A stretch of 42,075 bases of DNA, from positions 1-42,075 of the forward strand of contig WQWP01000003.1 of NCBI GenBank assembly GCA_009787485.1, given 5' to 3'. Origin of the DNA: Lentimicrobiaceae bacterium (GTDB lineage Bacteria; Bacteroidota; Bacteroidia; Bacteroidales; WCHB1-69). Positions 1-20,988 of the stretch are shown piece after piece. Below the pieces are notes generated by a model. That model did no database searches, was not told the origin of the DNA, and was given only the letters and a program-made list of their open reading frames with translations. The translations under genes and the position numbers were made by a program. The first letter of the stretch is position 1. Every line of letters starts with the position of its first letter.

Positions 1-29
1 ATTGTAGTTTTATGGCATCAAAAAAATGC

Positions 30-37
30 TATTTTTG
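30..37 (+). promoter_or_regulatory. Bacteroidota sigmaA -7 box (TATTTTTG) for the tRNA
   Basis: TAnnTTTG consensus 26 nt upstream of the tRNA 5' end. Confidence 0.65.
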
Positions 38-63
38 CAGCCGTTTTTCAAGTGCGAAAAACC

Positions 64-137
64 GGTCCCTTAGCTCAGACGGTTAGAGCATCTGACTCAT
101 AATCAGGGGGTCCTTGGTTCGATTCCAAGAGGGACCA
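64..137 (+). tRNA. tRNA with CAT anticodon, most likely tRNA-Ile2 (lysidine type); elongator Met not excluded
   Basis: Acceptor stem GGTCCCT/AGGGACC, D arm TAGCTCAGACGGTTAGAGC, anticodon loop CT-CAT-AA (CAT at 98-100), T arm GGTTCGATTCC; resembles E. coli ileX-type tRNAs; CCA not encoded. Confidence 0.9.
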
Positions 138-138
138 C
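95..138 (+). repeat. attL core repeat
   Basis: ACTCATAATCAGGGGGTCCTTGGTTCGATTCCAAGAGGGACCAC; 43/44 identical to 7775-7818. Confidence 0.95.
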
Positions 139-151
139 AAATGAAAATAAG

Positions 152-182
152 ACAGTTACAAAAACCCTGTAACTGTTTTTTT
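152..182 (+). terminator. Intrinsic terminator after the tRNA, supplied by the element
   Basis: ACAGTTACA-7 nt loop-TGTAACTGT followed by a T run. Confidence 0.75.
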
Positions 183-190
183 ATTGCTCC

Positions 191-208
191 TGAACAAATT
201 TTGAACAA
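191..208 (+). repeat. Putative integrase arm-type site pair (left)
   Basis: TGAACAAATTTTGAACAA, identical to 7629-7646; itself a tandem of TGAACAA. Confidence 0.7.
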
Positions 209-382
209 ACAAATCGTCTCAGTTAGTTTTTCAGGATGATTTCCTATTTTAATTCAAACCGTATTCCCGATATTTTTTCATAAAAATTGTTAAAAAACCG
301 CAACCATTGCAAATTAGTGGATATACATTTTATAATGAGGGGAAGATTCCCCCCTCAGAAATAATATAAACACACACACACC

Positions 383-1624
383 ATGTACAAAACAAAAGAA
401 GAAAGATTGTATTTTTTACAAGATTATCAAAATTTTGATGACATTTATTTAAAACACAGAGACGCAAATTTCAACAAAGGTAATCCACGAAAATATATCA
501 GATGTTCAAAAGAAAGTATTTTAAATTCCAAAATTATAATTTTTAAAAATCAAAAATTCAATTATCTTTGTTTGGACTGCGACAAAGGTATTAGCAAATT
601 AAATGATGAAATTATTGATTTTCTTAATCAGTATAACATAGTTTATTTTATCACACAGGGAAGTTGGACAGAGGGAAAACCGACAGACTCGGCAACGTTA
701 TGTATTCAATATAAAAATTTCAACAACGAAATTCGCAAAAAATTGAACAGACTTTTTATAGTTGTTTCGAGACTTGACGGTGAAATGACATGTGATCCGT
801 TGGCAATTGGAGATCAGATGAAATCGGTTTTCACATATCAAATGGAAAGTAAGTATTACAATAGAGAGGGTGGAAACGTTTTTGATTTAGAGAGATTGAA
901 TGAAATTGCATATTCACATTTTAATAAAAATTGGGATGAGGTAAATCGTTTGGCAAATCAATATAGAAGTGAATCGTATTATCAGAAATATAGAGCAATG
1001 AGAGAGAAAGATTTTGAGGGTATTTGTTTTAGCAAGTTGGAAAAGTATTATCAATATATGAGCAAACACAATTACAATAATTGGTTATTTATTCAAAAAG
1101 AAATTGATGAAGATTTTAATTTGATAATGAAAAAATACAAATCACTGCCATTAGCAAAGAAAATACAAACCGTCCATAAAAAAACATTAATTAGAGATTA
1201 TGTTTTGATAAATTGGTGTAAATGTGATGGTTATACGGAAGATTTAAAATTTTTTGCCGATTTATTGAAGAAAAAATTTAAGATAACATCAAAGAGACAG
1301 ATTTACAAAGTTGCGAAAGAAAAAGAAATACAACCATTCAATATAAGTTCCAAGTATTTAGATTATGTTTCTTTGATTAATGACGAACATTTAATAACAA
1401 TAAAAGACAAATTAAACGATTGCAAAACAAAGACAAGAAAACGTATAAAACCAACAAAGAAACACAAAGAACACAAAAACAAAGGGAAAGTTACAATGTA
1501 TTTTATAGAGAAGAACGGAAAGATTAAAGAAGTAAAATCAAATGAGAAGTCTGCATATTTAAAAAGAGGGTGGACGATTGTTGTAAAACCGCAACTTTTG
1601 CAAAGAGACGAATATACATTATAA
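383..1624 (+). CDS. Putative replication initiator (Replicase/ColE2-type AEP-like N-terminus, basic C-terminal tail)
   Basis: 413 aa; LCLDCD (DxD motif); CDPLAIGDQMKSV resembles the Replicase DPGYSGxxxKNP motif; first gene of the rep-xis-int cluster. Confidence 0.55.
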   Translation: MYKTKEERLYFLQDYQNFDDIYLKHRDANFNKGNPRKYIRCSKESILNSKIIIFKNQKFNYLCLDCDKGISKLNDEIIDFLNQYNIVYFITQGSWTEGKPTDSATLCIQYKNFNNEIRKKLNRLFIVVSRLDGEMTCDPLAIGDQMKSVFTYQMESKYYNREGGNVFDLERLNEIAYSHFNKNWDEVNRLANQYRSESYYQKYRAMREKDFEGICFSKLEKYYQYMSKHNYNNWLFIQKEIDEDFNLIMKKYKSLPLAKKIQTVHKKTLIRDYVLINWCKCDGYTEDLKFFADLLKKKFKITSKRQIYKVAKEKEIQPFNISSKYLDYVSLINDEHLITIKDKLNDCKTKTRKRIKPTKKHKEHKNKGKVTMYFIEKNGKIKEVKSNEKSAYLKRGWTIVVKPQLLQRDEYTL

Positions 1625-1682
1625 AGGGAAACCAAAGAAAAATTATTGTATATTACACACATAAAATAAAAACATATCAATT

Positions 1683-1979
1683 ATGAGAACAACAGATGAA
1701 AAATTCGTTGTACAATTGACGGTACAACAATTAAAAGAAATTATTTGCGAAGTAATCGCAACATCATTCACAGCAAACACATTGCCAAAATATGAATCAA
1801 CGGCAACGGAACGTGGCAAAAAATTGACTGGACTAAGAGAATTATCAAAACACATCGGTTGCGGTGTGAATAGTGCATTAAAAATCAAAAATGAGGGGAA
1901 AGTTCCATATTCAAAAATTGGCAATAGATTTTATTTTTATTCAAATGAGGTGGATATTGCATTACAACATACGGTATAG
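1683..1979 (+). CDS. Excisionase-like HTH protein (DUF3853/HTH_17-like)
   Basis: LTVQQLKEII N-terminus and LTGLRELSKHIGC...VPYSKIGNRFYF winged-HTH pattern; immediately upstream of the integrase. Confidence 0.8.
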   Translation: MRTTDEKFVVQLTVQQLKEIICEVIATSFTANTLPKYESTATERGKKLTGLRELSKHIGCGVNSALKIKNEGKVPYSKIGNRFYFYSNEVDIALQHTV

Positions 1980-2027
1980 TTTTATCGTATTTTTAATTAA
2001 TACAGTCAAAAAAATAAAAAGAATACA

Positions 2028-3332
2028 ATGAAAAAACAGTCAAAGAAAAGTATTGATATTCATAACAAGGAAAGAATACCCGCAATAGAAGAAAGAAATA
2101 TTGGTGGTGTGGGAATAAGATTGATGTATGATACCAGAAATTACAAAAAAGAAGATAGGTGTCTTATTGCCGTTTGTGTAACATATTCATACAAAAGATG
2201 GTATTATCCAACCGGAACGAATTCATCCCTTGATGACTATCTCCGTATAGTAAATGCAGGAACACAGGGAAAATGGTGTGAGATGAAGAAAGATTTAGTT
2301 CGATATTTTAATTATGTAGAAACGGCTGTAAAAGAGTTGATTACAGACGGATTTTCATTAGAAAAATTAAAAGAACGTATTGGAAAGGGAAGCAAAATTG
2401 CCAAAACAGATTTATTCGGTTATTGGGAGGAGATTGCCGAGACGAAACGAAAATATAGAACAAAACAAGGTTATTTAGGTTCATTAAATTCATTCAAAAA
2501 ATTTCGCAATAATGTGAATTTAATGGTAGGGGATGTTACCGAGACGATGATTGAAGATTGGAAAGAGGAAATGGAAAGTATAGGAAATGGGAATACGACA
2601 CAAGCAATTTATTTGCGAAGTTTAAGAGCAATTTTGAATTGTGCAATAGCAGATAATATTATTACGAAAAAACCAAAAATCATATTTCCTGTAAGTAGCA
2701 GACGGACAGATAATTTCATTCCTGTAGCAGATATTTTGAAATTAAAATCGTTTGTTGCTCCTGATGATTGGACAAATGCAGAAAAAAAATGTATTCAGAG
2801 AGCAATTGATTGGTGGTTAATATTATATTGCTGCAATGGATGCAATACGGTTGATTTGGCAGAGTTAAAATGGAATGATAATTATTTTTATGACAATGAA
2901 TTATCGTTCATTAGAAGTAAGATAAGGAGCAAAAAAGAGATAGAGGTAAAAATACCAGTTATACCCGAATTAAAAGAGTTATTGAAAAAATACGGTAGTA
3001 TTCCCGAAAAAAACAAATTAGTATTTCCTCAAATTTTAAGAGATGCAGCAACCGAAAAACAAAAGGTTGACCGTATTCACGGTTTCAATAAAAAGATGAT
3101 TAGAAAATGGTTAGTTTTGCCGTGTGAAAAATTAGGTATTAGAAACATTGGTGCACAATTTGCCCGAAATTCGTTTATTACGACCCTCACACATCACGGA
3201 GTATCAGATAGTTACATTGATCGTGCAGTGGGACATACGGATAACCTTTTGCGAGGTTATCAAGGTGGGTTTTCAAAAAAGAAACGATATGAGTTTAATA
3301 GTCAATTATTTATAGACCCTGAATTAGATTAA
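2028..3332 (+). CDS. Tyrosine site-specific integrase, Bacteroidota type (arm-binding, SAM-like and catalytic domains)
   Basis: YYPTG arm-domain motif, YLRSLRAILNCA core-binding motif, NGCNTVDL, FIRSK, ARNSF, VGHT and LRGY catalytic region. Confidence 0.9.
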   Translation: MKKQSKKSIDIHNKERIPAIEERNIGGVGIRLMYDTRNYKKEDRCLIAVCVTYSYKRWYYPTGTNSSLDDYLRIVNAGTQGKWCEMKKDLVRYFNYVETAVKELITDGFSLEKLKERIGKGSKIAKTDLFGYWEEIAETKRKYRTKQGYLGSLNSFKKFRNNVNLMVGDVTETMIEDWKEEMESIGNGNTTQAIYLRSLRAILNCAIADNIITKKPKIIFPVSSRRTDNFIPVADILKLKSFVAPDDWTNAEKKCIQRAIDWWLILYCCNGCNTVDLAELKWNDNYFYDNELSFIRSKIRSKKEIEVKIPVIPELKELLKKYGSIPEKNKLVFPQILRDAATEKQKVDRIHGFNKKMIRKWLVLPCEKLGIRNIGAQFARNSFITTLTHHGVSDSYIDRAVGHTDNLLRGYQGGFSKKKRYEFNSQLFIDPELD

Positions 3333-3599
3333 TACATTATCGCTATATTTATGCAATTTTGCAAAAGAAAGTAGTTTGTTGTAATTATTTTCGGTTGTAA
3401 TAATTGTATAGGAGTTTGCATCAATTTTAATCGGTTTTAATTCCCCACGACAGATTAGGAGTATCATTTTATCCAACATGGCAATTAGTCCATCGTCGTT
3501 TTTAATATATTCATCAGAATACAAAACATATTTTTTCGTTGCACCCTCATTGACATTTTCGTTAAGAAAATTATCAAATGTTGTATATCCTTTAATCAT
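3324..3599 (-). CDS. Small hypothetical protein with a phage internal-head-protein-like leader
   Basis: 91 aa; starts MIKGYTTFDNFLNENVNE; convergent with and overlapping the end of the integrase. Confidence 0.65.
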   Translation of the reverse strand: MIKGYTTFDNFLNENVNEGATKKYVLYSDEYIKNDDGLIAMLDKMILLICRGELKPIKIDANSYTIITTENNYNKLLSFAKLHKYSDNVLI

Positions 3600-3642
3600 A
3601 GTAACCGTATTTTTTGTATATATCCCAATTTAAAATTTCATG

Positions 3643-3650
3643 TATTTTTG
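3643..3650 (+). promoter_or_regulatory. Putative TAnnTTTG -7 promoter box
   Basis: TATTTTTG followed by CACC, just upstream of the base-paired region 3710-3864. Confidence 0.45.
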
Positions 3651-3709
3651 CACCCTGATTATAAACGAAAATTTATTGCATTATGACGTAGAAATAGTCT
3701 GAAAAATTT

Positions 3710-3864
3710 AATAGTGATTTGCTATTATTCTTCCATCCAATTACGACATTAATTTATTCTTTACGGAATGATTTTGTAAATCATCAAAAAGATGAGGAAC
3801 AATTTTGCTGAAAGATATGTGTCGTAACATGGATGGCAGCAAAATTTGTTCCTCACTATTTTTT
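3710..3864 (+). ncRNA. Candidate structured RNA or attenuator leader with interlocking helices
   Basis: 3733-3748 pairs with 3820-3836; 3793-3810 pairs with 3837-3855; 3710-3717 pairs with 3853-3860; T run follows. Confidence 0.45.
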
Positions 3865-3955
3865 AATAAGTTTCAATGTGAGTACAAAAATAATAAAAAA
3901 ATAAATGGAGTTGCCGATAGCCAAAAGTGGAGGCAAAATTTTAAATTTATACAAT

Positions 3956-4180
3956 ATGGTAACGTTTTATGTAGTAAAAGATTATGAAACACCGGAACAT
4001 GCAGGTGCAAGTGGTTTATTTCAATTGATTACAGTTAGTATTCATCGTGATGATGATGAAATTGATGATGTAACAAATGAAGTTGATTCGGGTAAATTTT
4101 TTAGGGATGATGAAGAATTAAAAAAATATTTTTCAAAAGTATTTGAAATAGAAGAGGATATAATGATTGCGGAAGACTAA
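3956..4180 (+). CDS. Small, very acidic hypothetical protein (74 aa; ORF track starts it at 3905)
   Basis: ATG 3956 preceded by an A/T-rich initiation region; 21 D/E versus 7 K/R by manual count. Confidence 0.6.
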   Translation: MVTFYVVKDYETPEHAGASGLFQLITVSIHRDDDEIDDVTNEVDSGKFFRDDEELKKYFSKVFEIEEDIMIAED

Positions 4181-4370
4181 AAAAATTGTTGAAAAAACCG
4201 ATTTATTCGGTGTGATGATTGGTGTTGTGGGTAGGTATGGAGTCAGCAATGAATGATGTTGTGTGTTTAAAACATGTAAATTACATTTGTTTGTTGTATT
4301 ACAATATGTTAGCGGACATGTGTGGGTAAGTGATATGATGTAACGACGTGCAAAAAATTATTATTGATTT

Positions 4371-4386
4371 AAAAAAAAAAAAAAAA
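4371..4386. repeat. Homopolymer A16
   Basis: 16 consecutive A. Confidence 0.9.
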
Positions 4387-4480
4387 CGATGTATAAATGA
4401 TATCATAATTATTGATATTCTTTATTATTAAATTCTAAATAACAACACAAGTCATTGAACCAAAGCAAATTATTTTTTAT

Positions 4481-5064
4481 TTTGAATTTGGCGAAAATAT
4501 GAAATTATCAATTTAAAAACGAACAATATGAAAAAGAGAAGGAAACAGTTTGACTTGGAAGTTCAAAACGTAGGTGATGTTTTTTGGATCGGGTACACAA
4601 AGACACCCGAAGACTTACACTGTGATTTTGAATTTAACTTCCGTCAGGGACTGTTTCCTTTTTATTTTAAGGTTGCAAAAATAGGAAATTATCAATTAAT
4701 AACAAACAAAAACAAAATGGGAGTGTTTCGACTGAGAACCCCCTTCGAAGTAGTTAACACCTCTCAGTTACAAGACTGTAACTTTTCATGGAACAGTGCA
4801 ATGTTTTATAGTTTAAGTTCTGTTTACTTTACTCCCATGTTTTTGTTTTAATTTGAAATGCAAATGAAAAAACCGGAAATTTTGTTTTATCCAACAGGTT
4901 CCACGATGTATTTAACACATTTGGGCGAGACCTTGATAATCTGCCAGTTGTGCGCAACCATAAGGTTGACAAAATGGAAAAAAAACCTTTGGTTTCCATG
5001 TTTCCGGTTTAATTTCATTTGAATTTGCAAAAATAGACATATTAATCAATTAAAAACAATAATT
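4481..5064 (+). ncRNA. Candidate array of three ~150-nt self-closing structured RNA domains separated by a repeated spacer
   Basis: Closing stems 4539-4549/4650-4660, 4704-4724/4831-4848 and 4861-4879/5001-5021 with nested helices; spacer motif G(C)AAAATA..AAATTATCAATT..AAAAAC..ATG at about 4490, 4675 and 5027. Confidence 0.5.
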
Positions 5065-7626
5065 ATGACAAAAACAATTTTTAAAATTTTATTTCTGTCC
5101 ACCCTACTTTTAATAGGGGTAATAAACACGAACGGACAAACGTGGCCACCTGCAGGAATGCAAGGTGACGGACTAACCGCAGAAACTGCATGGGAAATCA
5201 CCACACTAAGTCATTTATTTGCACTATCCAATCATGTGAACGATTTTGATAATCAAACATCGGGTAAGTATTACAAACTGATGAACGATATTGACATGTC
5301 GGGTATTTCATTTATCCCAATAGGTGGAATGCAGTTTGAGTGGACCTATACATATACTGCATTTCGTGGAAATTTTGACGGTAACGGTAAAGTAATCAAA
5401 AATCTAACTATCAATAGTTCATCAGACAGGGTAGGATTATTTGGACACGTTGCCAGCAATGCAACATTTCAAAATCTCGGTTTGGAAAACGTCAATATCA
5501 CAGGTGGTCAATACATAGGTGGATTGATTGGAACGGTCGGTGCAATGAGAGGGCAAGCAACAACAACAGGAAACATCACAATCTCAAACTGTTATGTTAC
5601 AGGCAAAGTCACAGGTACACAATCCGTTGGCGGTCTCGTTGGGTACGTCGCACCCAATTCCACATGCAACATAACCAATTGTTACACTGAATGTAACGTA
5701 ACCGCCAACAATTTTGTAGGTGGACTGGTAGGTGATAGTCGCGGCGACATTTCCTATTGTTACACGACGGGAACAGTCAAGGGGAACGGAACTGAGTACA
5801 TTAATGCAGTTGGCGGTGTAATCGGCAGGTATCTTTCCGGAACAGTCAAAAACGTTGTTGCCGCAAATGACACCGTAATCAATTATGGTATAGGTATTGT
5901 TGGTCGTGTAATCGGTAGCAATCAAGGTACGACACCCTTAAATTGTTACGGTCTCACGACAATGGTAATCGCAAACAATAACGGTGTCAACGGTACTAAC
6001 GCAACAATCACCCAATTACAGTCCCAATCCTTTTACACAACCCCATCTAATTGGAACACATCCCCGTGGAATTTCACAACAATCTGGACAATCTGCAATG
6101 CCAAATCGTTCCCTTATTTCCAACATCAAAATAAACCTTGCCAATACACCATAACCCCATCGGCAACCGCAGGTGGTACAATTTCCCCAAACACCCCACA
6201 ATCCGTACCGGTAAACGGAAACATCACGTTCACGGCAACCCCCACCGGCAATTGCAAAGAGGTGGATGTGTGGAAAATTGACAACACGGTGGTGCAAACA
6301 GGTGGCAACACCTACACAATCCAAAATGTGCAATCCGACCAAACAATTTCCGTTTCCTTCAAAACAATAATTTACACGTTAACACCGTTGCCGGCAACGA
6401 ATGGGACAATTTCCCCGAACACCCCCCAAACGGTAGAATGTGATGGATCGCTAACAACAACATCTTTTTATGCGACCCCCAATACAAATTATGAGGTGGA
6501 TAAATGGTATGTGGACGATGTACCCGTTCAAAACGGTGGCAATTCATTTGTTTTTTACAACTGGACCCTCACTGCTAACCACACGATTGAGGTAACGTTC
6601 AAATATGTACCACCAACGTACACCGTAACGTTTGCATCGAACGGTGGCAACGGCAATATGACACCGCAAACGTTCACAGAGGGTGTACCGCAATCACTTT
6701 CACAAAATCAATTTTACCGAAACGGTTATGATTTCAAAAATTGGAACACATCGGCAAACGGCAACGGAACAACCTATCAAAACGGACAAACGATAACCGT
6801 TTCCGCAAATATGACCTTATTTGCACAATGGGAAACAACCCATATTCCCGTAACGAATATAACGAACGTTCCCACAACGGCAACCGCAAACGTTCCCTTG
6901 ACCCTTACAGGAACAGTTGTACCTTCAAATGCAACCTATAAAACAATCGTTTGGACGGTAAAATCGGCAGGAACGACAGGTGCAAAAATCGTTGGTAACG
7001 TTTTTACGGCAACCTCATCGGGAACGGCAACCATAACGGCAACCATACAAAACGGTATTTCAATGGGTGTCCCATACACAAAAGATTTCACAATAACCGT
7101 GAATACCGATTTTGTGAAAGTGACTGATATAACGAACGTCCCCACATCGGCAACCGCAAACGTTCCCTTGACCTTGACGGCAACCGTATTACCAACCAAT
7201 GCAACAAATCAATCAATCATTTGGACAGTGAAATCGCAGGGAACAACCTCCGCAACCATAAATGGCAATACGTTTTTGGCAACCTCATCGGGAACGGCAA
7301 CCATAACGGCAACCATACAAAACGGTGTTGCCGTGGGGACTCCGTTTACCAAAGATTTCAACATCAAGGTGGACACCGTTGTTGGTATTGCCGAAAACAC
7401 CCTCATAAATTTTCGGGTATATCCCAACCCGACAACCGATTACATTACAATTGACAATGAGACTAATTTCACACAAATGGCTATCATTTATGACATCAGA
7501 GGGAGTATTGTAATTTCGGCAATAATTTCCCCATTTGACAAAACCAAAGTGAATATGGGACATTTATCGGTGGGAATGTATGTATTGAGGGTAGGAAATG
7601 AAACGATGAAAATTTTAAAGGAATAA
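5065..7626 (+). CDS. T9SS-secreted surface protein: signal peptide, GLUG-motif beta-helix, divergent InlB-B repeats, two Ig-like repeats, T9SS type A C-terminal domain
   Basis: FRGNFDGNGKVIKNL and repeated VGGLVG (GLUG); YTVTFASNGG...RNGYDFKNWNT...LFAQW (InlB B repeat); VYPNPTTD...LSVGMYVLRV CTD. Confidence 0.9.
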   Translation: MTKTIFKILFLSTLLLIGVINTNGQTWPPAGMQGDGLTAETAWEITTLSHLFALSNHVNDFDNQTSGKYYKLMNDIDMSGISFIPIGGMQFEWTYTYTAFRGNFDGNGKVIKNLTINSSSDRVGLFGHVASNATFQNLGLENVNITGGQYIGGLIGTVGAMRGQATTTGNITISNCYVTGKVTGTQSVGGLVGYVAPNSTCNITNCYTECNVTANNFVGGLVGDSRGDISYCYTTGTVKGNGTEYINAVGGVIGRYLSGTVKNVVAANDTVINYGIGIVGRVIGSNQGTTPLNCYGLTTMVIANNNGVNGTNATITQLQSQSFYTTPSNWNTSPWNFTTIWTICNAKSFPYFQHQNKPCQYTITPSATAGGTISPNTPQSVPVNGNITFTATPTGNCKEVDVWKIDNTVVQTGGNTYTIQNVQSDQTISVSFKTIIYTLTPLPATNGTISPNTPQTVECDGSLTTTSFYATPNTNYEVDKWYVDDVPVQNGGNSFVFYNWTLTANHTIEVTFKYVPPTYTVTFASNGGNGNMTPQTFTEGVPQSLSQNQFYRNGYDFKNWNTSANGNGTTYQNGQTITVSANMTLFAQWETTHIPVTNITNVPTTATANVPLTLTGTVVPSNATYKTIVWTVKSAGTTGAKIVGNVFTATSSGTATITATIQNGISMGVPYTKDFTITVNTDFVKVTDITNVPTSATANVPLTLTATVLPTNATNQSIIWTVKSQGTTSATINGNTFLATSSGTATITATIQNGVAVGTPFTKDFNIKVDTVVGIAENTLINFRVYPNPTTDYITIDNETNFTQMAIIYDIRGSIVISAIISPFDKTKVNMGHLSVGMYVLRVGNETMKILKE
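6857..7370 (+). repeat. Intragenic tandem duplication with a 270-bp period (two Ig-like domains)
   Basis: For example GGCAACCTCATCGGGAACGGCAACCATAACGGCAACCATACAAAACGGT occurs at about 7008 and 7278. Confidence 0.85.
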
Positions 7627-7628
7627 TT

Positions 7629-7646
7629 TGAACAAATTTTGAACAA
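7629..7646 (+). repeat. Putative integrase arm-type site pair (right)
   Basis: Identical to 191-208. Confidence 0.7.
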
Positions 7647-7774
7647 GTAATTTGAAGACATTGTAAGAATAGAAAACATAATTTAAAACGAAGTTATGTT
7701 ATAGTCAGCCATTTAGTAACAATATTAACCACAACAGAAGACACACAAAAACAGGAAAAAACAAAACTGATATA

Positions 7775-7818
7775 ACTCATAATCAGGGGGTCCTTGGTTC
7801 GATCCCAAGAGGGACCAC
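7775..7818 (+). repeat. attR core repeat (displaced 3' half of the tRNA)
   Basis: 43/44 match to 95-138 with one mismatch (T124 vs C7804); no tRNA 5' half upstream. Confidence 0.95.
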
Positions 7819-7838
7819 TTTTATCTGTTTAAAATTAG

Positions 7839-7875
7839 AAAAAATCGTTGTAAATCAGAATACAACGATTTTTTT
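7839..7875. terminator. Bidirectional intrinsic terminator (original tRNA terminator / AAA gene)
   Basis: AAAAAATCGTTGTA-8 nt loop-TACAACGATTTTTT. Confidence 0.75.
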
Positions 7876-7876
7876 G

Positions 7877-9091
7877 TTATCTCTTTAACAGCCAATCTAC
7901 AATGTTGATATGTTCAATCCCTTCAATTTCAGAAGTTATTAGGTCAGTAGAGATAATATATTTTGGATAATTATCGTCAATAGATTTTAATGGACGGATT
8001 TCTCGCTCTGCTGTTTTAGGATCGGACATAGACCAAGTAACTTGATAATATTCAAATTTATTCAGTGCATTTTTTACAATGAAATCCACTTCATACGCTC
8101 CAACTTTTCCAATCCAAATCTGATAACCTCGCCTGTTTAATTCTAAATACACAATGTTTTCTAAAATATGTCCTACATCTTGATATTGAAATTTTCCAAG
8201 CTTTAAATTCCGAAAGCCAATATCTACCAAATAGTACTTTTCTTGTGTTGCAAGTTGCTGTTTACCTTTAATATCAAAACGGCTTACTTGATAAAAGACG
8301 TAAGAATTTACTAAATATTCGATATATCTTTCTACTGTATTGTGATGTATGTCTTGTTTATCTTGTTTCATTGCTTTTGAGATGCTATTTGGCGATACAA
8401 CACTTCCAATTGCACCCATTAAGAATTTTGAAAGATTATCAAATCCTCTCATATTCTGAATATTATATCTCTGCTTAATGTCTTTCTCTACAACGGTGCT
8501 GTACACGTCTTGAATATACCTGTTTTGAATATCAGCGCCTTGGCTTCGCAATAAAACGCCTTGTGGCAACGAAGTTTCATAAAGGTAGTTATTAAATAAT
8601 TCATATTTATTTAATGCCGTATTTTTTTGACTTTCAAAATATTCGCCGAATGAAAATGGCAAAATATGTATCGTAATGTAACGACCTGACAACAATGTTG
8701 CAATTTCGCCCGACAAAAAATAAGCGTTTGAACCTGTTACATACAAATCAATAAATTTCTCAGTATATAAGGCATCTATGAGTCGTTCAAATTCAGGAAT
8801 TTGCTGTGGCTCATCAAGAAAAATGTAATTCATATTTTCTTTGTCCGTTTTGGAAAAAATATCTTTGTAAATATCAAGCCACGTGTATTCTTCCGGAAAA
8901 ATCGGCTTTTCAAAATTATAGCATTGAACTCTGTTTGTTGGCGCTCCTGAATCAATAATTTGTTCAGCAAAAATTTCTAACAAAGTGGATTTACCCGAAC
9001 GTCTTAATCCTGTAATAACTTTGATAATATGCTCGTCTTTCAACTTTTCTAACTGTTGAATGTAGTTTTTTCTATTTATTAGCTCATTCAT
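7877..9091 (-). CDS. AAA_14 ATP-binding protein with DUF4143 C-terminal domain
   Basis: Walker A GLRRSGKS, Walker B IFLDE, TGSNA, KYYLVDIG, LENIVY...EVDF. Confidence 0.9.
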   Translation of the reverse strand: MNELINRKNYIQQLEKLKDEHIIKVITGLRRSGKSTLLEIFAEQIIDSGAPTNRVQCYNFEKPIFPEEYTWLDIYKDIFSKTDKENMNYIFLDEPQQIPEFERLIDALYTEKFIDLYVTGSNAYFLSGEIATLLSGRYITIHILPFSFGEYFESQKNTALNKYELFNNYLYETSLPQGVLLRSQGADIQNRYIQDVYSTVVEKDIKQRYNIQNMRGFDNLSKFLMGAIGSVVSPNSISKAMKQDKQDIHHNTVERYIEYLVNSYVFYQVSRFDIKGKQQLATQEKYYLVDIGFRNLKLGKFQYQDVGHILENIVYLELNRRGYQIWIGKVGAYEVDFIVKNALNKFEYYQVTWSMSDPKTAEREIRPLKSIDDNYPKYIISTDLITSEIEGIEHINIVDWLLKR

Positions 9092-9244: not shown

Positions 9245-12200
9245 TTACTTCTTAACAAAACTCTTCACTCCCGTGCGGTCTCCTTCTATTACACGAATGA
9301 AGTAAGTTCCTGCGGAAAGTGTAGTGATGTTGATGTCGAATATAGCTTCATCGGTTTCATATTTGGCAATATGCATACCCATGGCGTTATATACTTCAAT
9401 GGTAGCCGGCGCCGTAGCAGTACGTTTAACGGTAACTTTGTCGGTAGCCGGGTTGGGGAATAGACCGAAAGTAAGATCGTAATCGTTGATACCTAATGGC
9501 AATTTAACTGGTACAATCATATCTTTATCAGCAACAATTACATTGCCGGTTTGTGTAACATACGACAGTGCAGAAACTACCCATGGATATGTTCCGGGAG
9601 GTAAATCTTCAACTACATTACCTTCAATTGGTTCACCGTTAAATTCTATGAAAGCATCCGGTATTGGATTTCCTTCCATATCTGTTACCTCGAATGTTAC
9701 TTTATATAAACCACAAGCAGGATCGGTAATGGTAAACGGTATGGTTGCCATTGTAGATTCGCCGCAAGCAAATACTGAGGTAACACCGGCTACGTGATCG
9801 CCTTTCAGTACACCTGTAAATGTATATTCGGTTTCTGTAGTTTGGGTTACAAACTTACCATCTAAATATACATTGTAGCCGAGGAAGGTCTTCGAGTCGC
9901 TGCCTTTGCCCGGGAAGTCAACAGAAATATCATCTAACATAAAGAACCATGAGTCAACGGAAACTACATTAATAGCCAAATATACATCTTGACCTGCATA
10001 AGCAGTTAAATCAAAACTATACTCTGTCCATGTATTTTCCGGAGCTGAAATATAGGCGTCATCTTGTATGAATGTAAATGCTGCCGGAACCGGATCCGTT
10101 GTTGACACTCCTACTTTAAATCTTTCTAACTGATATACACCTGCATTCGTCCGATAAGATTTTGCCCAGAATTTTAAATATACACCTGCAGCAATCTTCA
10201 TCTTTGGTAATATCAACCAGTCATCTTGCCAGTATCCGGCATTATCGGAAGACCATGTTGTCAGATATTTATTTCCACTATGCGGCTGTGCATCCGCATC
10301 AGCGCTTAGAGCCGTTTGAGATGGATTAAATACCATATACGATTTTGGTACTGTTGCATTTGGCCAGTTAGCCTGGGTATGACTAAATGTATTTGCCCCA
10401 TCAACATCAATTAAAATATAATCGCCAATATCTGCAATAATGAAATTTTGGTAGCTTTCCATATCATCATAGAAAGGAGTGAACTGAATTTCATTATTCC
10501 ATGTAAAGAGTGCGCTACAGCCATCCACGTCTATTTCTAAACGTACCGGCTCTGTTAATTTATCAAGTACATTAGAGAACGCAGGATCAGACACTACACC
10601 ACCATGGTAGCAAGTTCTTACTGCATATCTGTACATTCCCGGAGCAGCGGTATTCCAACTGTAATCTACAAATCTCAGGTCGGTTACCGGGTTGTTGGTT
10701 AATGTTACCCATGCAGCTTGGTTATTTTCTTCTCCTTTTACAAGACGCCATAGTTTGTAACCGATAGGACCAAGCGCTTTTTCGCCGCCGCGCAACTTAG
10801 AATCATCTGTAACTACAGGCCCTTCCGACGGAGTGCTAATAATTGCAGGACCTTTCGCTAACGTAGTTTGCATGCTTCCTTCCTCTATATTGGCAGAGCG
10901 GCTGGCTCCTTTGTTGGCAACATAGCCAAACTTGCCGCCATCTGTTCCAATAGCGCGAATCATACAGTTTTTAAAGATGCTGCTCTCTCCAAACGGACTA
11001 AATGGGTAAACTGCACTTAAACTGTAATAGTTTCCGTCTGTTACGAAGGGCCATTCAGCGTTAGGAGCATCTGTTCCTACACTGGTAAAGCCACCATTAG
11101 AAGGACTTACGCCGATGAAGAATCCATCAGGACAAGCCACAGGCTCCGGAAATTCGTATTCACACCATTGTAAAGGAGTGTTCGGAATATTCAGAACTTT
11201 AAATATTACCTTGTTTCTATCAGGAATATTGTTGGTTAAACCAAGTACCCATAAATCGTAAGCCGGTTGAACTACATTGGTGGTTGAGTACCAACTCATA
11301 CTGAATAGCGTTGTGCTTTCTCTATGTACAGAGCCTATCACACTTTCGCGCGTACCTACCTCGGGGAATCCTATTTGCTGATCGTTAATTCCGCTATCAT
11401 AACGGAACTCTTTCGTTGGAAGTGCCGGCGTTCCCCAAGTAACTTCTGCATAACAATCTTCAAAATAGTTGGCTTCTACATTTCTTGGTTCTTCAGGTAT
11501 TTCTAATAAGATAATCGGTAAGTTGGTATTTCCAATAATATCTATGGTTGCGGTATAAGGTTGGAAACCTTCTGCCTCAGCATAAATTGTATATGGGCCA
11601 TCGAAAACAAACGGGAATTCAAATAAACCTAACTCAGGGCCGGACTCGGTTTCGTAGGTGTTACATCCACCTTCCAATTTCAATGTAGCGCCGTTAATGA
11701 ATGTTTGTCCATCGGCAGCTTTCACTGTACCAAATACCACACGGGTATGCAGGGAGAAATTACGTACTGTACTCATATTGGCATAAATAGTAACATTAGC
11801 CGTTGCAATAGCTCCGCAGAGATTTGCTTCTATAGCGTAGTTGCCCGGTTTCAGGTACAGGAATCTGTAGAATCCGTCTGCATTGGTCATTGCATAAAGT
11901 GCAGTACCTGTAATTTGTACTTTCACGCCTTCTATCGGAGCGCCTTGGTCATCGCTTACAACTCCGGATAATGAGCCCATTCCTTGCATGTTGAATGTAA
12001 ATCCGGCATTCGGGAGGCCTTGAGTCAGGTCGAGTGTTCCGCCGTTACCGGTTGGATTCAACAGGTCGAACTCAGCGCCACCGGCATCATCTTTGTAAAG
12101 CATTCTTGAACGTCCTGCGAGAGGAGTGCATTTGAATCCATCGGTTGAGTTGCCGTAGCCACTGTCGTATCTTTGAGAGTAAATTACCAAAATTTTACCG

Positions 12201-15200
12201 TTATATTCGTACGGCGTAGCTAATGGAATATTAAAGGTATATTTTCCTGTAGGGAAGCTTCTTATGCCGTCATATACTTCTGTAAAGATATTAGGATCTA
12301 CCCAGCCGGCATTCAGGTTATCAAGATTATCCACTTCACCTATCCATACGCGAATTCTTACACTTTGCAAATTAGTGCCGGTATGGTCAATAGATGCTTG
12401 ATAAGCAATATTGTTGATAATACCGCCATTGGTTCCAAATTCGTGTGGGAAGTATATCGATTGCGACAAACTCTTACGATAGTAGAGGTTGTAAGGCACT
12501 CTTCCTGAGTTATTTGTTGCGTTTGGATCGCCAATCTCGATGATAACCGTACCTTCAGGACTCACTGTTATTGGGAATAGCGGGGTTGTGTTATTTCCAA
12601 GGAACATGTCGCTCTCAAAATCCACATAGCCTTTAATATTTAGTATTCCAACGTGCGCTGCGGTGAAAGCATCTACCGGAACTGTATATTGACCAACGGC
12701 TTCAGGAGCTAAGAATGTGGTGATTTCGCTTTCTCCCAACAATTCATTGTCTTCTGTTAATACTTGAAGTTTAAAGTTGGTTACAGGGTTAATCCCTTTG
12801 TTCTTAACAGTTATGGTATAATCATAACTGTTTCCTACAGTTGGATTAGGTCCGGCAATTGATATGGCTTCCATATCTATATCAAAAATGCCTTCCAATT
12901 TTACTTCGTCAACATAGAGGTTAAATTGATTAGCAATAGAATAGCAATAATATCCCAGATGTAAAATTCCTGCAGGAAGAACTACTACAAATTCTGCATT
13001 AAGCATATTTCCGCCTGTACCGCTAATCGCTGTATAGTCGTGTATCACATTAGTTTGTGCAGCAACGGTATTGCTGGCTCCCCAAGTTACGCGCAATCTT
13101 TCCAGGTATGAAGTGGAGTTGGTGCCATACTTGAATGTCAGTCTGTATTCTCCTGCGGCAGGTACCATAATCGGAGGTGAAATCATCCAGTCGTTGGCAG
13201 GAAGTGTAGAATGCCAGGTATATTGTGCCAAACCGTTGTTGGGCGGAGTGGTAGTTGGCGTAGTACGTGTCCAGGTATTACCGCCGTTCAAATCAATTAC
13301 TGTCCATTCGTTGAAAACAGCTTGTGTTTCAAAGTCGCAGAAATAAGGAATGGTGTAAGGTTCACTTGGTAAACACACCTCATTCGACATCCCTGTATAG
13401 AAGTCATTCGGACAAAGAAGTTCCACTTTATAACAAGCCGCATAAATAGGGCCGAGCGGATCTACATAAGGGCTGGTAGCGCCTGTCATTATAATAGCGC
13501 CATCGCGGTAAATTCTTCCGGTAACTCCGGGCTCATTCGTCCATGAAATTCTATTGCCACCGGCAACGCGGGTAACAGCGATTACAGCAGGATCGCAATC
13601 GGGCACAAATACACAAGGCAAGTCTATCGTTTCGCAAACAAGTTCAGACTCTTGGCCATCGGGGCAAATTGATTTCACACACCACGTATGTCCACCTACC
13701 CAAGGATCGAAATCATTATCAATGTACGATTTTTTCTTTGTGGTGGCAATATGATCGCCATTACGGTAAACCATATATTCTAAGTCGCTGCCCGGGCAAA
13801 CCCTAAGTCTGAGATTAGCTCTGAATTGAGTTCTTGTCATACTTCCTGCAGGCGCTGCCGGATTTATCTGATTGTAGTCGTCGTATGCGTAGATGGTCTT
13901 ATATTGTGTAAGGGTACCTCCTGCCCAACTACTGGAGAACCAACCGGTACCCATGGTTTGGTTGATGGCAATTACAAGATTACCACCGTCATATTCAAAT
14001 GGTTCTTCAAAATCTATGGAAGTCCACTGGTCAGCTGCATTAAATGTAACCGTACCGCTATACATTAATGTCAATTCGGAAAGCGGAATAAATTCGGATG
14101 CAGTAACCGGAGTACCAAATTCGCTTTTGGTCGTAGTTCCTATATAAACCGCCACCGGAATAGTTTTTACCGCATTAACTCCGGTAGTACGATAGCCAAA
14201 TGCTACCCCTGAAATGAGCGCGCCTACAGCATCTCCAATTTCCGACTCATTATAAATGGTTTGCGTATAGGCATTATTATAAGTTGTATATATTGGTGAA
14301 CCGAGGCCTGTTGTAGTACCGGATGGAACCACTAAGCCTTCGCATTCGCCCATATCTTCAGTTACCGTTATAGATTGACATACGCTTTGCGGCCCACAAT
14401 CTTGTGAAGGAGGATAGATAGCTCTTACACAATAGCTATGCTGTCCGGAAGGCGCGAATGAATGGGTGAAAGAAGTAGTATTTACGGTTTCTAACAGCGT
14501 TCCGTTGAAACGTACTTCATATCCTGTAGGTGTGCCGGAGGCAGCCGTCCATGTTAAATTAACACTTTGACCTGGAGCTTGAGTAGCCGTAAGGCCAGAA
14601 ATTGCGGGACATGGGTCTTTGCCTGCACCTGCTATAACAAAAGATTCAACACTTCTCTCTGCGGGGAAAGTTCCGAGAATAGTAAAAGCGCCTGTTGCTT
14701 TATTAATGGTGCGCCACTGTGTTGTATTGGTTGGCAGATCTGGGCTGCGGAAAGCATGATACAAGATACCTGTTTCCGGATCAATATTAATATCCTGAAT
14801 CCAGTTTCCGGCCGGATATGTAGAAATTTGGGTAAATGCTCCGGTTGTTAAATTAAGCGTACCAAAAGTTGATTGAGTTACGCTGAGGTTCAATGCATAG
14901 CAAGTTCCGTCAACATCAATAGCAATATATCTAACTGCATCAGTTGTTGATATTTGAGTAAATATACCGGTTGCAAGGTCAATCGTTCCAAATCGGGCTG
15001 AGGGCTCAGGAAACTCTGTAGCATACGCTATACCGGTAACAGGATTTAATGCCATACTGATACAATCGGGCACCTGGGCGTTATTGGAGTTAATGATAAC
15101 AGTTGCTCCGGTTTCCGGATCCATTTTTCTATAAGAATTAACGTATGGAGCGCTGCTGGTACAAGTTACTATTCCTATTTGACCATCTGCAGGATCATAA

Positions 15201-18200
15201 ACCATAGCCTGATGAGAGAGCGTGATGGCTACAAGTGGTGGCACCGGTGCGTTAAAATCGCCCAGTGTGGTTAAAAATGCAGCGAAAGGAGGAGTGGATG
15301 AAGCCGTGGTATATACGAACGGAGAGGTTTCGCCTCTAAACGGAACAGGCGCAACGAACTCTGTTTGAGGAGTAAATGTCATGGTTCCTGCCGGAGCGTG
15401 TCTTTGCGCAAGACTGTTTGAAGCGTTATTTTGTTCTAATGCCAATCTATCCGCCATTACTTGCAGTTCGCTTTCCGGATCTACTTTAGGCGCTGCTGTT
15501 GTAAATTCAACAGGATCTTCAGTTCCTTTTCCTTTACCGGCAACGTTCCATGTTAATATCGCGCTGCAATCGTTGTCCACGCGGTCGTAATCTACTGTAA
15601 AATTAACGATCGGAAGCGCTTCACACTCATTTCCTTCAACGCAAATTGGTTTTGAAACTTCCACCGGCAGCGATTGGTCGCCTGTTTCGCAAGCCACAGT
15701 TACCGACCAGGTGTGAGGTACATTGTTGTTGAAAGATGCGGTATAAGTAGTGCCTTCGTGATTTGCAACAAGAAGTGCGCCGTCTAAATATATATTGTAG
15801 GTAACATCTCCGGGGGTAGGACCATCAGGACTGGTTATTAAAACATCATCAATAAATGCGTCATCGCCATCCCACTCATAAGTAAAGTCATGGAATCCCA
15901 AATAGTAGGTTCCGCTTGTTGTAGGTGTAAAAGTGTAAGTAATTTGCGTCCAATTGGCAAAGTATACATTGAGATTTTTATACACTTCCACACCGCTATT
16001 CATTGCTGAAATGGTTGGATTTTGGGCTATTTTTACTTCAAAGCGATTTCCATCACCGGCATTATATCCCATCAGCGCCCAAAAACTTATTGTATAGGGA
16101 ACACCTTGTGTTAGAGCAACACCGGGGCTAAACATCCACGCATCTTTATCAGCTTCGTCATCCCACCAGCAAGCAGCTGCTTGGTCTCCGGTATATGCTT
16201 GCCAATCATCAACAAACCACCACCAGCCATCGCCAACAGATGTTTCTGTCCAGCCGTCCGGCAAATCAAAAACATCAGCATCTTCAAATCCTTCCGAAAG
16301 AAGAATGCCTTTAGAATAATTAGGAGCTAAGCCGGGTGTATTGTTACGTTCAGCTCTTTTTTGAAGTATCGTTTCTTTTTTTACCGATTTTTCTTTTTCG
16401 CTTTTCTCAACCCGAATATAATCAGGGTTTGTGGCGCCTTTTCCTTTCGCCGGCGCCGTCCACGACAATGTTGCAGAATTACATGCATTGTTGTAAGCAA
16501 CGGTTAAACCTGTTGCGGGGTCGCAATCGCCTGATGGCGGTTGGCAAATTGGTTTTGCTACTGTTACCGGATCTGATTCGCCGCCATCTTCGCAAACTAC
16601 TTTCACCGACCATGTATGAGGTACATTGTTTTCGAAAGTTGCGGTATAATTAGTGGCTGCAGTTGTGGTAAGTAGTGTACTGCCTCTATATACATTATAT
16701 GTAACATTTCCGGGGGCAGTTCCACCTGTTATTTGTGCATATCCGTTTCCTGAGGGGTCTGGGTTCGCCACAAAGTTAGGTTCGCCGAATTTGATGGTAA
16801 TTCCGTTTGTAACTCCATCAATATTTCCGGAGCCTGCGCCGCCGCCGCCGCCCCAATGTCCTGCGCCGCCGCCATACCAGCCGCCGCCGCCGGCACAACC
16901 GCCTAAACTACCATTATAACCGCCGCCAGTTCCAAAACCGCTGGGGGGTACATTATAACTGAGCATCTGTGTGGCACCTGCGCCACCGGCTGTTTGTGTG
17001 CCACCTTGTCCGAGATTTGCTGGTGCTCTGGAAGAAGTACCGTCGCCGCCGGTTAAACCGCCGCCGGCGCCACCATGACTGTTTACATATGAATTGTAAC
17101 CGTCGGCGCCACCGCCACCGCCGCCAACAATGATTCTGTTGGCATAAGTGTCGTTTTGGGTGGTTCTTATATCTGTTCCGCCGCCGCCGGTACCTCCGTC
17201 GTTACCGGCAGAAAATGTTCCTGTAATAACGCCGCCACCGTTCCAGCCGCCTGCAGCCGTTCCGGGTCCTGTAGAAGTACCTCCCTTTCCGCCAACATAA
17301 ACATAATAGGTTGTGGGCGCTGTAACATTAATCGTTCCTTTTGAGTATCCTCCCTTACCTCCTGATCCATGTTTGGCATTTCCGCCATCGGCGCCCCAAA
17401 CTTCAATTTCGTAAGTTCCGGGTTGCAGCTCTACGGGTTGCGGTGCGCCTGTGTAGGAGAAAATTTGGGTGTTCGTGCTTTTGCCGGCCGGGGCTGTCCA
17501 CGACAATGTCGCAGAATTACAGTTTAAGTTGTAATTAACAGCTAAGTTTGTTGCGGGGTTGCACTCGCCGGGCTCATCTCCACCTTCACAGAAATTGAAT
17601 TTTATATTCGGACGGTTGGTGAGTCTTGTTCCGGTACCCGGGGCTGTTGGATCATAAACACTGCCATCTCTTCTTGCGTGTATGGTTTTTTCCCCACTGG
17701 TAGCTGTTCCGTTCCAAAGCGGGGTGGTAGTGCTGCCTATATAAGCGTTAATTCCATTTTTAAAGTTTACAGCTACTACAACATTATTGCCACTATAAAC
17801 AAATGGAACATCAAGTTCAATATATATCCAACCTGCTTCACATACCACAGGCCCGTTATATACTAATTCCATATCAGCCGGCAACACCCAATCGGTAGTG
17901 GAGGCAAAAGTGGTCTTGGTGGTATTTCCCAAATAAATATCCACATTGGGGAAAGTAAAAGGCGTATGAATATATTGGAAGTTGAGCGCTGTGATTTCAC
18001 CTGAACTGCCATATCCAATCTCCGCAGCATCATATATTTGTTGCGCGTATGAAAAATAGTTGAACGATCCTATTGGAGCTGCAGGCATTCCTACTGTTCC
18101 TTCGCCCACTTGATAGGGCACTTCGGTTTCTTGACAGGTATGATATTTGCAGGGCTCCATAGTTGCGCTCATGGGGTCAGATTCGCCCTGTTCGCAAACC

Positions 18201-20896: not shown

Positions 20897-20980
20897 AATG
20901 AATAAATTTTGGTTAATAATTATTTTGGTTTGATTTTTATGTGATTTTTTAGTTAGCTTCTTTATTATATAATTAGCCTG

Positions 20981-20988
20981 CAAAAATA
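20981..20988 (-). promoter_or_regulatory. -7 promoter box for the giant gene
   Basis: TATTTTTG on the minus strand about 85 nt upstream of ATG 20896. Confidence 0.6.

Follow-up and report, generated by a model that had tools for sequence, protein, structure and literature searches.

Can a gene carried by a bacterial integrative island be switched on by an infecting phage, and can its product be addressed to the inside of that phage's head? The question is raised by a 91-codon gene on the minus strand of a 42,075-nt stretch of DNA (contig WQWP01000003.1 of a Lentimicrobiaceae bacterium, hereafter the window), which belongs to a small island inserted at a tRNA-Met gene (Table 1). An earlier note on this DNA had described it as the only minus-strand gene of the element, with a leader resembling the capsid targeting sequence (CTS) of phage T4 internal proteins and a motif resembling a late promoter, and had proposed that a helper phage both turns the gene on and packages its product. 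These landmarks are exactly as claimed: the N-terminus reads MIKGYTTFDNFLNENVNE (the translation of the open reading frame, ORF, opens MIKGYTTFDNFLNENVNEGATKK), the nonamer GATATATAC lies 17-25 nt upstream of the start codon, and every other long ORF taken as a gene between the attachment (att) repeats is on the plus strand. Here we report that, as judged from sequence comparison, the box and the leader core of this gene match those of one lineage of T4-type huge phages, and that the host genome uses neither of them. Whether the gene is indeed wired to the late programme of such a phage, and not to its host, is in our estimation evenly balanced.

A conserved gene with a short N-terminal leader

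The minus-strand gene is a real gene under purifying selection. Among the window and the related metagenome loci L002 and L003, the ratio of non-synonymous to synonymous substitution rates (dN/dS) is 0.19-0.22 in its own frame and about 1 or higher in the others, the codon-complementary antisense frame excepted; the start codon is set by an in-frame TAA 11 codons upstream, and the frame is open in five sequences with identities down to 60%. A chance open frame, antisense to the region downstream of the integrase gene, would be in keeping with the lack of a known family and with a structure model of low confidence, but it is contradicted by the selection acting on this frame and by its persistence in the five sequences, and we hold it to be extremely improbable.

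The family to which the gene belongs is small. Public homologues number four, three found among 5.8 billion clustered proteins and one more by HMMER over 1.84 billion representatives; none occurs in the 151 other genomes of the bacterial family, and none was found in the genome-contig scan or in IMG/VR. The protein matched no family or sequence in Pfam, PHROG, NCBIfam, PADLOC or the PDB, its best E-value in a PDB profile search was 0.58, and a search of the ESM Atlas returned nothing usable. In the AlphaFold2 model (predicted local distance difference test, pLDDT, 59.3), a short helix at residues 8-12 is followed by a low-confidence coil and then by a predicted beta-alpha-beta-beta-alpha arrangement. 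Fold matches to TFIIH p8/Tfb5 (best Z 4.4) and to several MerR-type N-terminal domains (Z 3-3.9) are read as noise. Other candidate relatives were rejected: the metagenome scan gave L004 and L005, whose 22-residue matches are spurious (in L005, the one inspected, the match is an antisense ORF); P0006, from the representative search, is a repeat protein; and P0007 and P0008 were set aside, their matches covering 18-35 residues only, in 7-8 stretches.

The leader forms a short tag at the extreme N-terminus, with its motif at residues 8-14 and a second site at 16-18. The T4 CTS reads MKTYQEFIAE (PMC8442874), and T4 tags of this kind are described as 10-19 residues long, with residues 4 and 7 important for targeting and residues 8 and 10 for processing (PMC9026906, section 2.6). 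With an offset of four, F8, F11, L12 and E14 of the island leader line up with Y4, F7, I8 and E10 of T4, and in the five family members they are invariant or conservatively replaced. The earlier note had named homologues devoid of the leader as grounds for abandoning its proposal; I2, G4, F8, F11 and E14 are kept in all five members, with L or I at position 12. The linker that follows varies in length (about 11 extra residues in the homologue P0005), and a conserved core comes next. An (I/L)xE within the first 20 residues is in itself commonplace (210 of 1591 long ORFs of the host genome); the fuller expression ^M.{2,9}F[DE].F[ILMV].E fits 3 of the 7263 host ORFs of at least 40 aa.

Leader and box in T4-type huge phages

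IMG/VR was scanned with the back-translated pattern F[DE]xF[ILMF]NEN, which gave at least 118 loci; hits were judged in open frames of at least 60 codons and were called N-terminal when no more than 20 codons separated them from the first start that follows a stop. Among the IMG/VR matches listed, 43 of 112 open-frame hits are N-terminal, as against 11 of 92 among the matches listed for the same pattern in the cellular genomes of 185,579 species (at least 120 loci; Fisher p = 2.5e-5). Several of the cellular N-terminal hits listed have doubtful starts, and none has the MKxIK prefix or the box GATATATA described below. The 38 N-terminal viral ORFs listed represent 28 distinct proteins, as told from their first 40 residues, with unrelated bodies, and by our reading of the list about 25 of these 28 start M-K-x-I-K-x-F-E-E-F-(I/L)-N-E-N; no PHROG family was found for 16 of the 19 leader-tagged proteins scanned.

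Near-complete contigs that carry such genes measure 136-319 kb. The gp21-type (S77) prohead protease, PF03420, scores above its cut-off in 5 of 20 carrier records, including four of the five that are at least 48% complete (the remaining records are mostly fragments, 9-38% complete according to CheckV), and it is adjoined by the gp23-type capsid gene, PF07068, in 4/5. The claim of a capsid-targeting type of leader is thus borne out at the level of sequence patterns: F..F(I/L)NE marks the N-termini of numerous proteins, unrelated to one another, in T4-type huge phages, which have both a protease and a capsid protein of the T4 kind.

Three carrier contigs, G171, G172 and G177, were analysed whole. 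By a loose regular expression they hold 12, 20 and 22 leader-tagged genes, respectively, often in tandem arrays, with the consensus M-K-x-I-K-x-[FY]-x-x-F-[IL]-N-E; the 59,597 aa of G171 contain the strict motif at six N-termini and at one internal position. One G171 gene opens MKTYEEFINEA, and another leader-tagged gene directly precedes the protease gene. A separate observation concerns G172 (319 kb; L161-L162), where a tandem array of 11 paralogues of 231-315 aa, all opening MKRI(S/I/V)NYKTF(I/V)NES, extends over about 38.6-48.4 kb and may be likened to a much enlarged T4 internal-protein locus. The closest relatives of the G171 capsid protein are found in an uncultured 462-kb huge phage (50% identity), in the Lak phages of Prevotella (35-38%) and in the Tenacibaculum phage pT24 (28%), so that the named ones have Bacteroidota hosts. 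Freshwater phages of 293-331 kb and 31-34% G+C, with predicted Bacteroidetes hosts, are described as having the same fused "prohead core scaffolding and protease" gene (PMC9723584). A bS21 gene is present in G171 only among the three contigs, whose G+C content is 31-32%.

The box played no part in finding these phages. When all 8-mers in the 60 nt before genes are counted without bias, GATATATA nevertheless ranks first in G171 (34 genes against 1.6 expected; 48 copies in total) and in G172 (36 against 2.0; 55 copies), and third in G177 (22 against 1.2; 34 copies), where ATATATAA is first. The latter word is also the top one upstream of genes in LR756500, which has no leader gene in the 42 kb examined. 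In the three phages GATATATA is strand-specific (34/1, 23/2 and 42/5 genes, sense versus reverse-complement control), and in G171 38 of its 48 copies touch non-coding DNA, which makes up 7% of the contig. In that phage a scan of 31 genes (E <= 1e-5) places the box ahead of those for the head maturation protease, the sheath and tube of the tail, a tail fibre and a minor coat protein; the motif-less genes (94 scanned, E <= 1e-12, with the shorter ones of the 148 listed left out) comprise 23 of DNA, RNA or nucleotide metabolism and 4 structural ones; for two gene sets scanned at different thresholds, the association of the box with structural versus metabolism genes gives a Fisher p of 0.003. It lies directly upstream of 14 of the 54 leader genes and of 78 of the 940 others (p = 2e-4). 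The late box of T4 itself, TATAAATA, is not enriched (11 of 56 copies upstream of genes). A sound reading of these patterns is that GATATATA(A) is a promoter-like box of late type proper to this phage lineage. The motif had been announced as one of T4-late type, and this survives in the sense of a promoter-like box of leader-bearing T4-type phages, placed before structural and not replication genes; the sequence used by T4 does not occur upstream of the minus-strand gene, its sole nearby copy (3307-3314, minus strand) being downstream.

The box of the island gene, which matches GATATATA(A), is part of GATATATACAAAAAA, a 15-nt identity with the box preceding the head-protease gene of G171; the phage copy reads GATATATACAAAAAAG and its island counterpart GATATATACAAAAAAT. 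In L002 the box is GATATATAT, at unchanged spacing. The homologue P0005, 60% identical, is an over-long gene call that shows ...VQTYTKFLIGIYRKSTIMKIKG upstream (the upstream frame of the window is VQKYMKF*IGIYTKNTVTM), which implies, from the protein and not from the DNA, that GGN-ATH-TAY is kept at the same distance. Over the 14 codons upstream of the ATG, the window and L002 differ at eight places, all non-synonymous, and this stretch is therefore to be read as a DNA signal and not as coding sequence.

The host genome, in turn, makes use of neither element. It has 86 copies of GATATATA in 2.26 Mb, and of its 1882 genes 4 have one in the 60 nt before them, the island gene included; one of the candidates, GATATATAATA before C60 9702-9944, which is an apparent truncated metallophosphoesterase behind the end of another gene, was treated as chance. 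On a profile made from 53 phage leaders the island protein ranks first of 7263 host ORFs, and its homologues score 13.3-19.2 bits. The nonamer GATATATAC by itself is unremarkable, with one copy in the window and at least one in 27 of 100 shuffles.

Phage command, relic or coincidence

How could an island gene profit from such signals? In the reading that we prefer, the phage-type box drives transcription of the gene, and the protein made enters proheads, where it is trimmed, a proposal that we hold with as much doubt as belief. In an uninfected cell the gene would have no or weak transcription, coming at best from a remote host-type box and passing through a terminator-like hairpin (Table 1). 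Upon infection by a phage with the GATATATA(A) box, the phage-modified RNA polymerase would start at GATATATAC, 17 nt before the ATG; the leader, aromatic-x-x-F-(I/L)-N-E, would carry the product into the assembling prohead core, as the T4 CTS does, and the gp21-type (S77) prohead protease would cut after LNE and/or VNE, leaving a protein of 73-77 residues inside the head. The packaged protein could then spoil the progeny virions, in defence of kin cells, or enter the next cell with the DNA, helping the island or blocking the phage there. This full scenario, in which the island imitates two signals of a giant T4-type phage, its late promoter and its tag for delivery to the capsid, so that the phage itself makes and packs a "Trojan horse" that ruins its progeny or is injected onward, is possible but tentative.

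A first alternative is that we are misled by coincidence. The gene product would then be an ordinary small protein accessory to the integrase module, for instance a factor for excision or switching or one half of a pair with the acidic neighbour; its first helix would read F..FLNE by chance, and the AT-rich box would be part of a conserved control region. The gene does constantly adjoin the integrase gene, convergent and overlapping, and on its other side lies a conserved 305-nt spacer, in which each strand has a host-type box and which also contains a bidirectional hairpin. The fold z-score here is -4.7, no Rfam family matches the spacer, and its identity to L002 is 91.5%, versus 84.1% for the ORF of the gene and 79-89% for the flanking genes; its facing boxes and hairpin suggest either a switch made of convergent promoters or a pair of antisense RNAs. 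One of these boxes bears on the earlier statement that no TAnnTTTG lies nearby on the strand of the gene, which is right for the first ~280 nt and fails beyond them, where a perfect TATTTTTG points towards it. A further candidate for a host -7 box, TAAATTGG at -33 to -26, was dismissed, being absent at that place in L002. Furthermore, very many genes were screened, so that some double matches are expected by chance, and the leader profile score is marginal. Against all this stand the joint rarity of box and leader in the host genome (about 0.2% times 0.04%), the fact that the flagged 8-mer is the top upstream word of phages chosen by their leader alone, and the absence of any match to a DNA-binding or toxin-antitoxin family for a protein that, at full length, is not basic (pI 5.7). 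We regard coincidence as somewhat unlikely.

A second alternative accepts the phage origin but not the function. Box, leader and ORF would have been copied together from a huge phage and kept for another job, such as that of a small regulator or an anti-defence protein, with tag and box as relics devoid of any packaging role. Both signals clearly indicate this phage lineage, and the left 5 kb of the island, at 28-32% G+C, resemble the phages and not the flanking DNA. No phage homologue of the mature domain was found, however, and relics should decay, yet the leader residues are invariant down to 60% identity, the spacing of the box is kept and dN/dS is about 0.2. A passenger of this kind therefore seems unlikely.

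Other observations tell against phage command itself, and they concern the leader, the box and the phages. The leader prefix of the island protein, MIKGYTT, is out of register with the phage prefix MKxIKx, and its anchor residue is at position 8, as opposed to position 7 in 30 of 54 phage leaders. On the phage-leader profile its 12.7 bits equal the lowest phage leader, with a phage median of 33.3, and the next host ORF is just 1.3 bits below. The pattern MIKGxxxF[DE]xF has a single match in IMG/VR, and this is internal. The earlier note had advised searching residues 1-18 and 19-91 separately: the leader core did turn up in IMG/VR, while the mature part matched neither IMG/VR nor PHROG and has no relative in G171, G172 or G177. 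The match between the cores is also partly circular, because the leader search pattern came from the island gene; not built into that pattern are the bias towards the N-terminus, the box, the presence of head genes of T4 type and the large number of unrelated proteins that each phage tags. As for the box, its GATATATAC variant is scarce in the phages: G171 has it in 2 of its 48 copies, one of which precedes the protease gene. GATATATA occurs only once in positions 1-8200 of the window, and nothing else on the island looks phage-directed. The conservation of the box between the window and L002 is not specific, because the whole spacer is conserved and a conserved divergent host-type promoter lies about 20 nt away. 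Regarding the phages, the search suggested at the outset for leaders and box in T4-like or jumbo phages of the same habitat succeeded in its first half, both being found in G171, G172 and G177, and failed in its second, as no phage of this lineage is tied to the habitat of the island. Their Bacteroidota hosts are themselves something we infer, and an upstream TAnnTTTG is enriched in G172 only (46 versus 28 in the antisense control), not in G171 or G177. Finally, pT24 and Lak-A1 have neither box nor leader within 42 kb around the capsid gene, so the lineage with both signals is narrower than "Bacteroidota huge phages".

The island, its setting and its counterparts

The element is bounded by a 44-nt repeat of the 3' part of tRNA-Met and runs from about 139 to 7818 (~7.7 kb; Table 1). 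Its integrase and the minus-strand gene keep their convergent layout in L002 and L003. All public runs containing the stretch are labelled termite gut metagenome, none of those listed being an RNA run, and the signs of a Bacteroidota-type host are clear in the sorting domain of its surface protein, which belongs to the type IX secretion system (T9SS), and in the TAnnTTTG motif, present before 73 of 416 genes versus 20.8 expected.

Table 1. Features of the island and of its minus-strand gene, in positions of the window.
Feature	Position	Strand	Remarks
tRNA-Met gene	64-138	+	
attL	95..138	+	3' part of tRNA-Met
413-aa protein, candidate replication protein	383..1624	+	N-terminal domain resembles archaeo-eukaryotic primases and primase-polymerases
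DUF3853-like small protein	1683..1979	+	Weak Pfam match, 21.4 bits (cut-off 22.1)
Tyrosine integrase	2028..3332	+	Convergent with the minus-strand gene, 9-nt overlap
Minus-strand gene, 91 aa	3324..3599	-	ATG start
Predicted mature part, residues 19-91	3327..3545	-	Predicted beta-alpha-beta-beta-alpha, pI about 8
Leader, codons 1-18	3546..3599	-	MIKGYTTFDNFLNE followed by NVNE; two (I/L/V)-N-E sites
Spacer, 305 nt	3600-3904		Separates the minus-strand gene from the divergent acidic-protein gene
GATATATAC box	3616..3624	-	-25 to -17 from the ATG
Host-type (Bacteroidota) -7 box TATTTTTG	3643..3650	+	Points right, away from the minus-strand gene; TACATTTG in L002
Hairpin in the spacer	3786..3862		21-nt arms (3786-3806 and 3842-3862), 81% complementary; T-runs on both strands
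Host-type -7 box TATTTTTG	3885..3892	-	Points left to the minus-strand gene, about 290 nt upstream; conserved in L002; faces the box at 3643-3650
Small acidic protein	3956..4180	+	Divergent neighbour; kept in L002
107-aa ORF			Between the small acidic protein and the T9SS surface protein
T9SS-sorted surface protein, 853 aa	5065-7626	+	GLUG, Listeria-Bacteroides repeat, Big_2 and Por_Secre_tail domains
attR	7775..7818	+	44-nt copy of the tRNA-Met 3' part, 98% identity

The 413-aa protein is a probable replication protein of the island, of primase-polymerase type according to its model (pLDDT 74.7). The structure matches Prim-PolC (Z 6.6 over 174 residues), the S-2L PrimPol (Z 6.5) and RepB' (Z 6.3), a consistent family of hits with Z-scores below the safe level and Foldseek E-values of 0.08 or worse. 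Its 11 homologues all lack a name, and one of them, P0018, comes from a 71,743-base contig, as does P0004, a relative of the minus-strand protein, probably the same contig in both cases. The acidic neighbour has no counterpart in the 151 other genomes of the bacterial family, and its ORF in L002 begins at the residue equivalent to M18 of the window ORF 3905-4180. Just upstream of that ORF in L002 (513-548, minus strand) we observed the Rfam DUF805b RNA motif RF02914 (39.7 bits; gathering threshold 35.6); the window counterpart, 3905-3955 on the plus strand, does not match RF02914 and has look-alikes of 79-88% DNA identity elsewhere in the host genome and in several relatives, one of them (C133:158-222) ahead of a zinc-ribbon ORF.

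The largest cargo of the island is its surface-protein gene. This gene, with 40-45% G+C, far exceeds the rest of the island, at about 30%, which suggests a composite origin for the element. Besides the integrase, no PHROG family was recognised in the island at E <= 0.001, nor any packaging, capsid-hijack or helper-sensing gene. The integrase, the att repeats and the probable primase-polymerase would fit a phage satellite, a class to which the island may belong.

Neither an excised circle nor an empty site was found in the public assemblies aligned to positions 1-8200; contigs from four public DNA runs break at 94 and 7804, that is, at the att repeats, and some assembly joints at the island derive from a related, diverged element. 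In runs X1 and X2, a 4668-base contig of depth 8 has a diverged integrase copy (about 81-87% identical; window 2054-3118), with joints that connect 2054 with 7627 on opposite strands and 3671 to 6733, and these differing joints mean that the same samples also contain related elements of other layout. In L003, homology to the window stops at 1700-1790, about 170 nt upstream of the integrase gene; beyond the break there is a piece that, by eye, resembles the reverse complement of a tRNA 3' half (called as such by neither ARAGORN nor Rfam), and then a metabolic gene. The integrase module of L003 thus seems to sit at a different tRNA, lacking the genes for the 413-aa and DUF3853-like proteins. Immediately outside attR, at 7877-9091 (minus strand), there is an AAA_14/DUF4143 ATPase of the PADLOC candidate defence family PDC-S01 (E = 1e-141), and a single ORF of 3912 aa, nearly 12 kb long, adjoins the island at 9245-20983 (minus strand).

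How does the minus-strand gene compare with known systems? The T4 internal proteins are described as widely different proteins that have the tag alone in common, are loaded into the scaffolding core and receive a single cut by gp21 (PMC3012670, PMC9026906). Like IPI, IPII, IPIII and Alt, the island protein has a short N-terminal tag, with aromatic residues at the positions that serve targeting in T4 and I/L-x-E at those that serve cutting; it would likewise be a small cargo, of about 75 residues, with a promoter-like box of late type near its start. Unlike them, it is encoded on a bacterial integrative island, its tag lies four residues further from the start, its box is GATATATAC and not TATAAATA, and no protease, scaffold or capsid gene was found near it. 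A search of its own genome (86% complete) for PF03420 and PF07068 found neither, a result that is uninformative since the control genomes are silent too. As it is not phage-encoded, it is no strict member of the T4 CTS cargo set. With the cargo sets of G171, G172 and G177 it shares the leader core, the GATATATA(A) box and a G+C content of about 31%, but these are phage-borne, 12-22 per phage and often in tandem, whereas the island gene is single-copy, with a shifted prefix and an unrelated mature domain; in tblastn searches of the island proteins against the three phages nothing matched except the leader.

The other obvious comparison is with phage satellites such as P4, PICI, PLE, PICMI and the I55 island of jumbo phage JPTI55. 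The element resembles them in its small size, its tyrosine integrase, its tRNA-type insertion site, a probable primase-like protein and a gene that seems responsive to a specific lytic helper; it differs from them in the lack of any recognisable gene for packaging, capsid remodelling or helper sensing. PICMI is reported to be packaged as a concatemer without capsid remodelling (PMC10803314), and the first report of a jumbo-phage satellite, from Pseudomonas, dates from 2025 (PMC12772148). A full-text search of the literature found no article pairing "capsid targeting sequence" with "satellite".

So far, the CTS is known only as the way in which phages load their own internal proteins. If our reading is true, the minus-strand gene would encode the first capsid-targeted protein found outside a phage, and would reveal a new means by which defence islands or satellites affect the huge lytic phages of Bacteroidota; phages and mobile elements would then be contending inside the virion itself. 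The combination of a lineage-specific late box with a leader would, in addition, provide a sequence rule to find phage-responsive genes in bacterial genomes, and with the same rule hosts and parasites could be assigned to uncultured huge phages.

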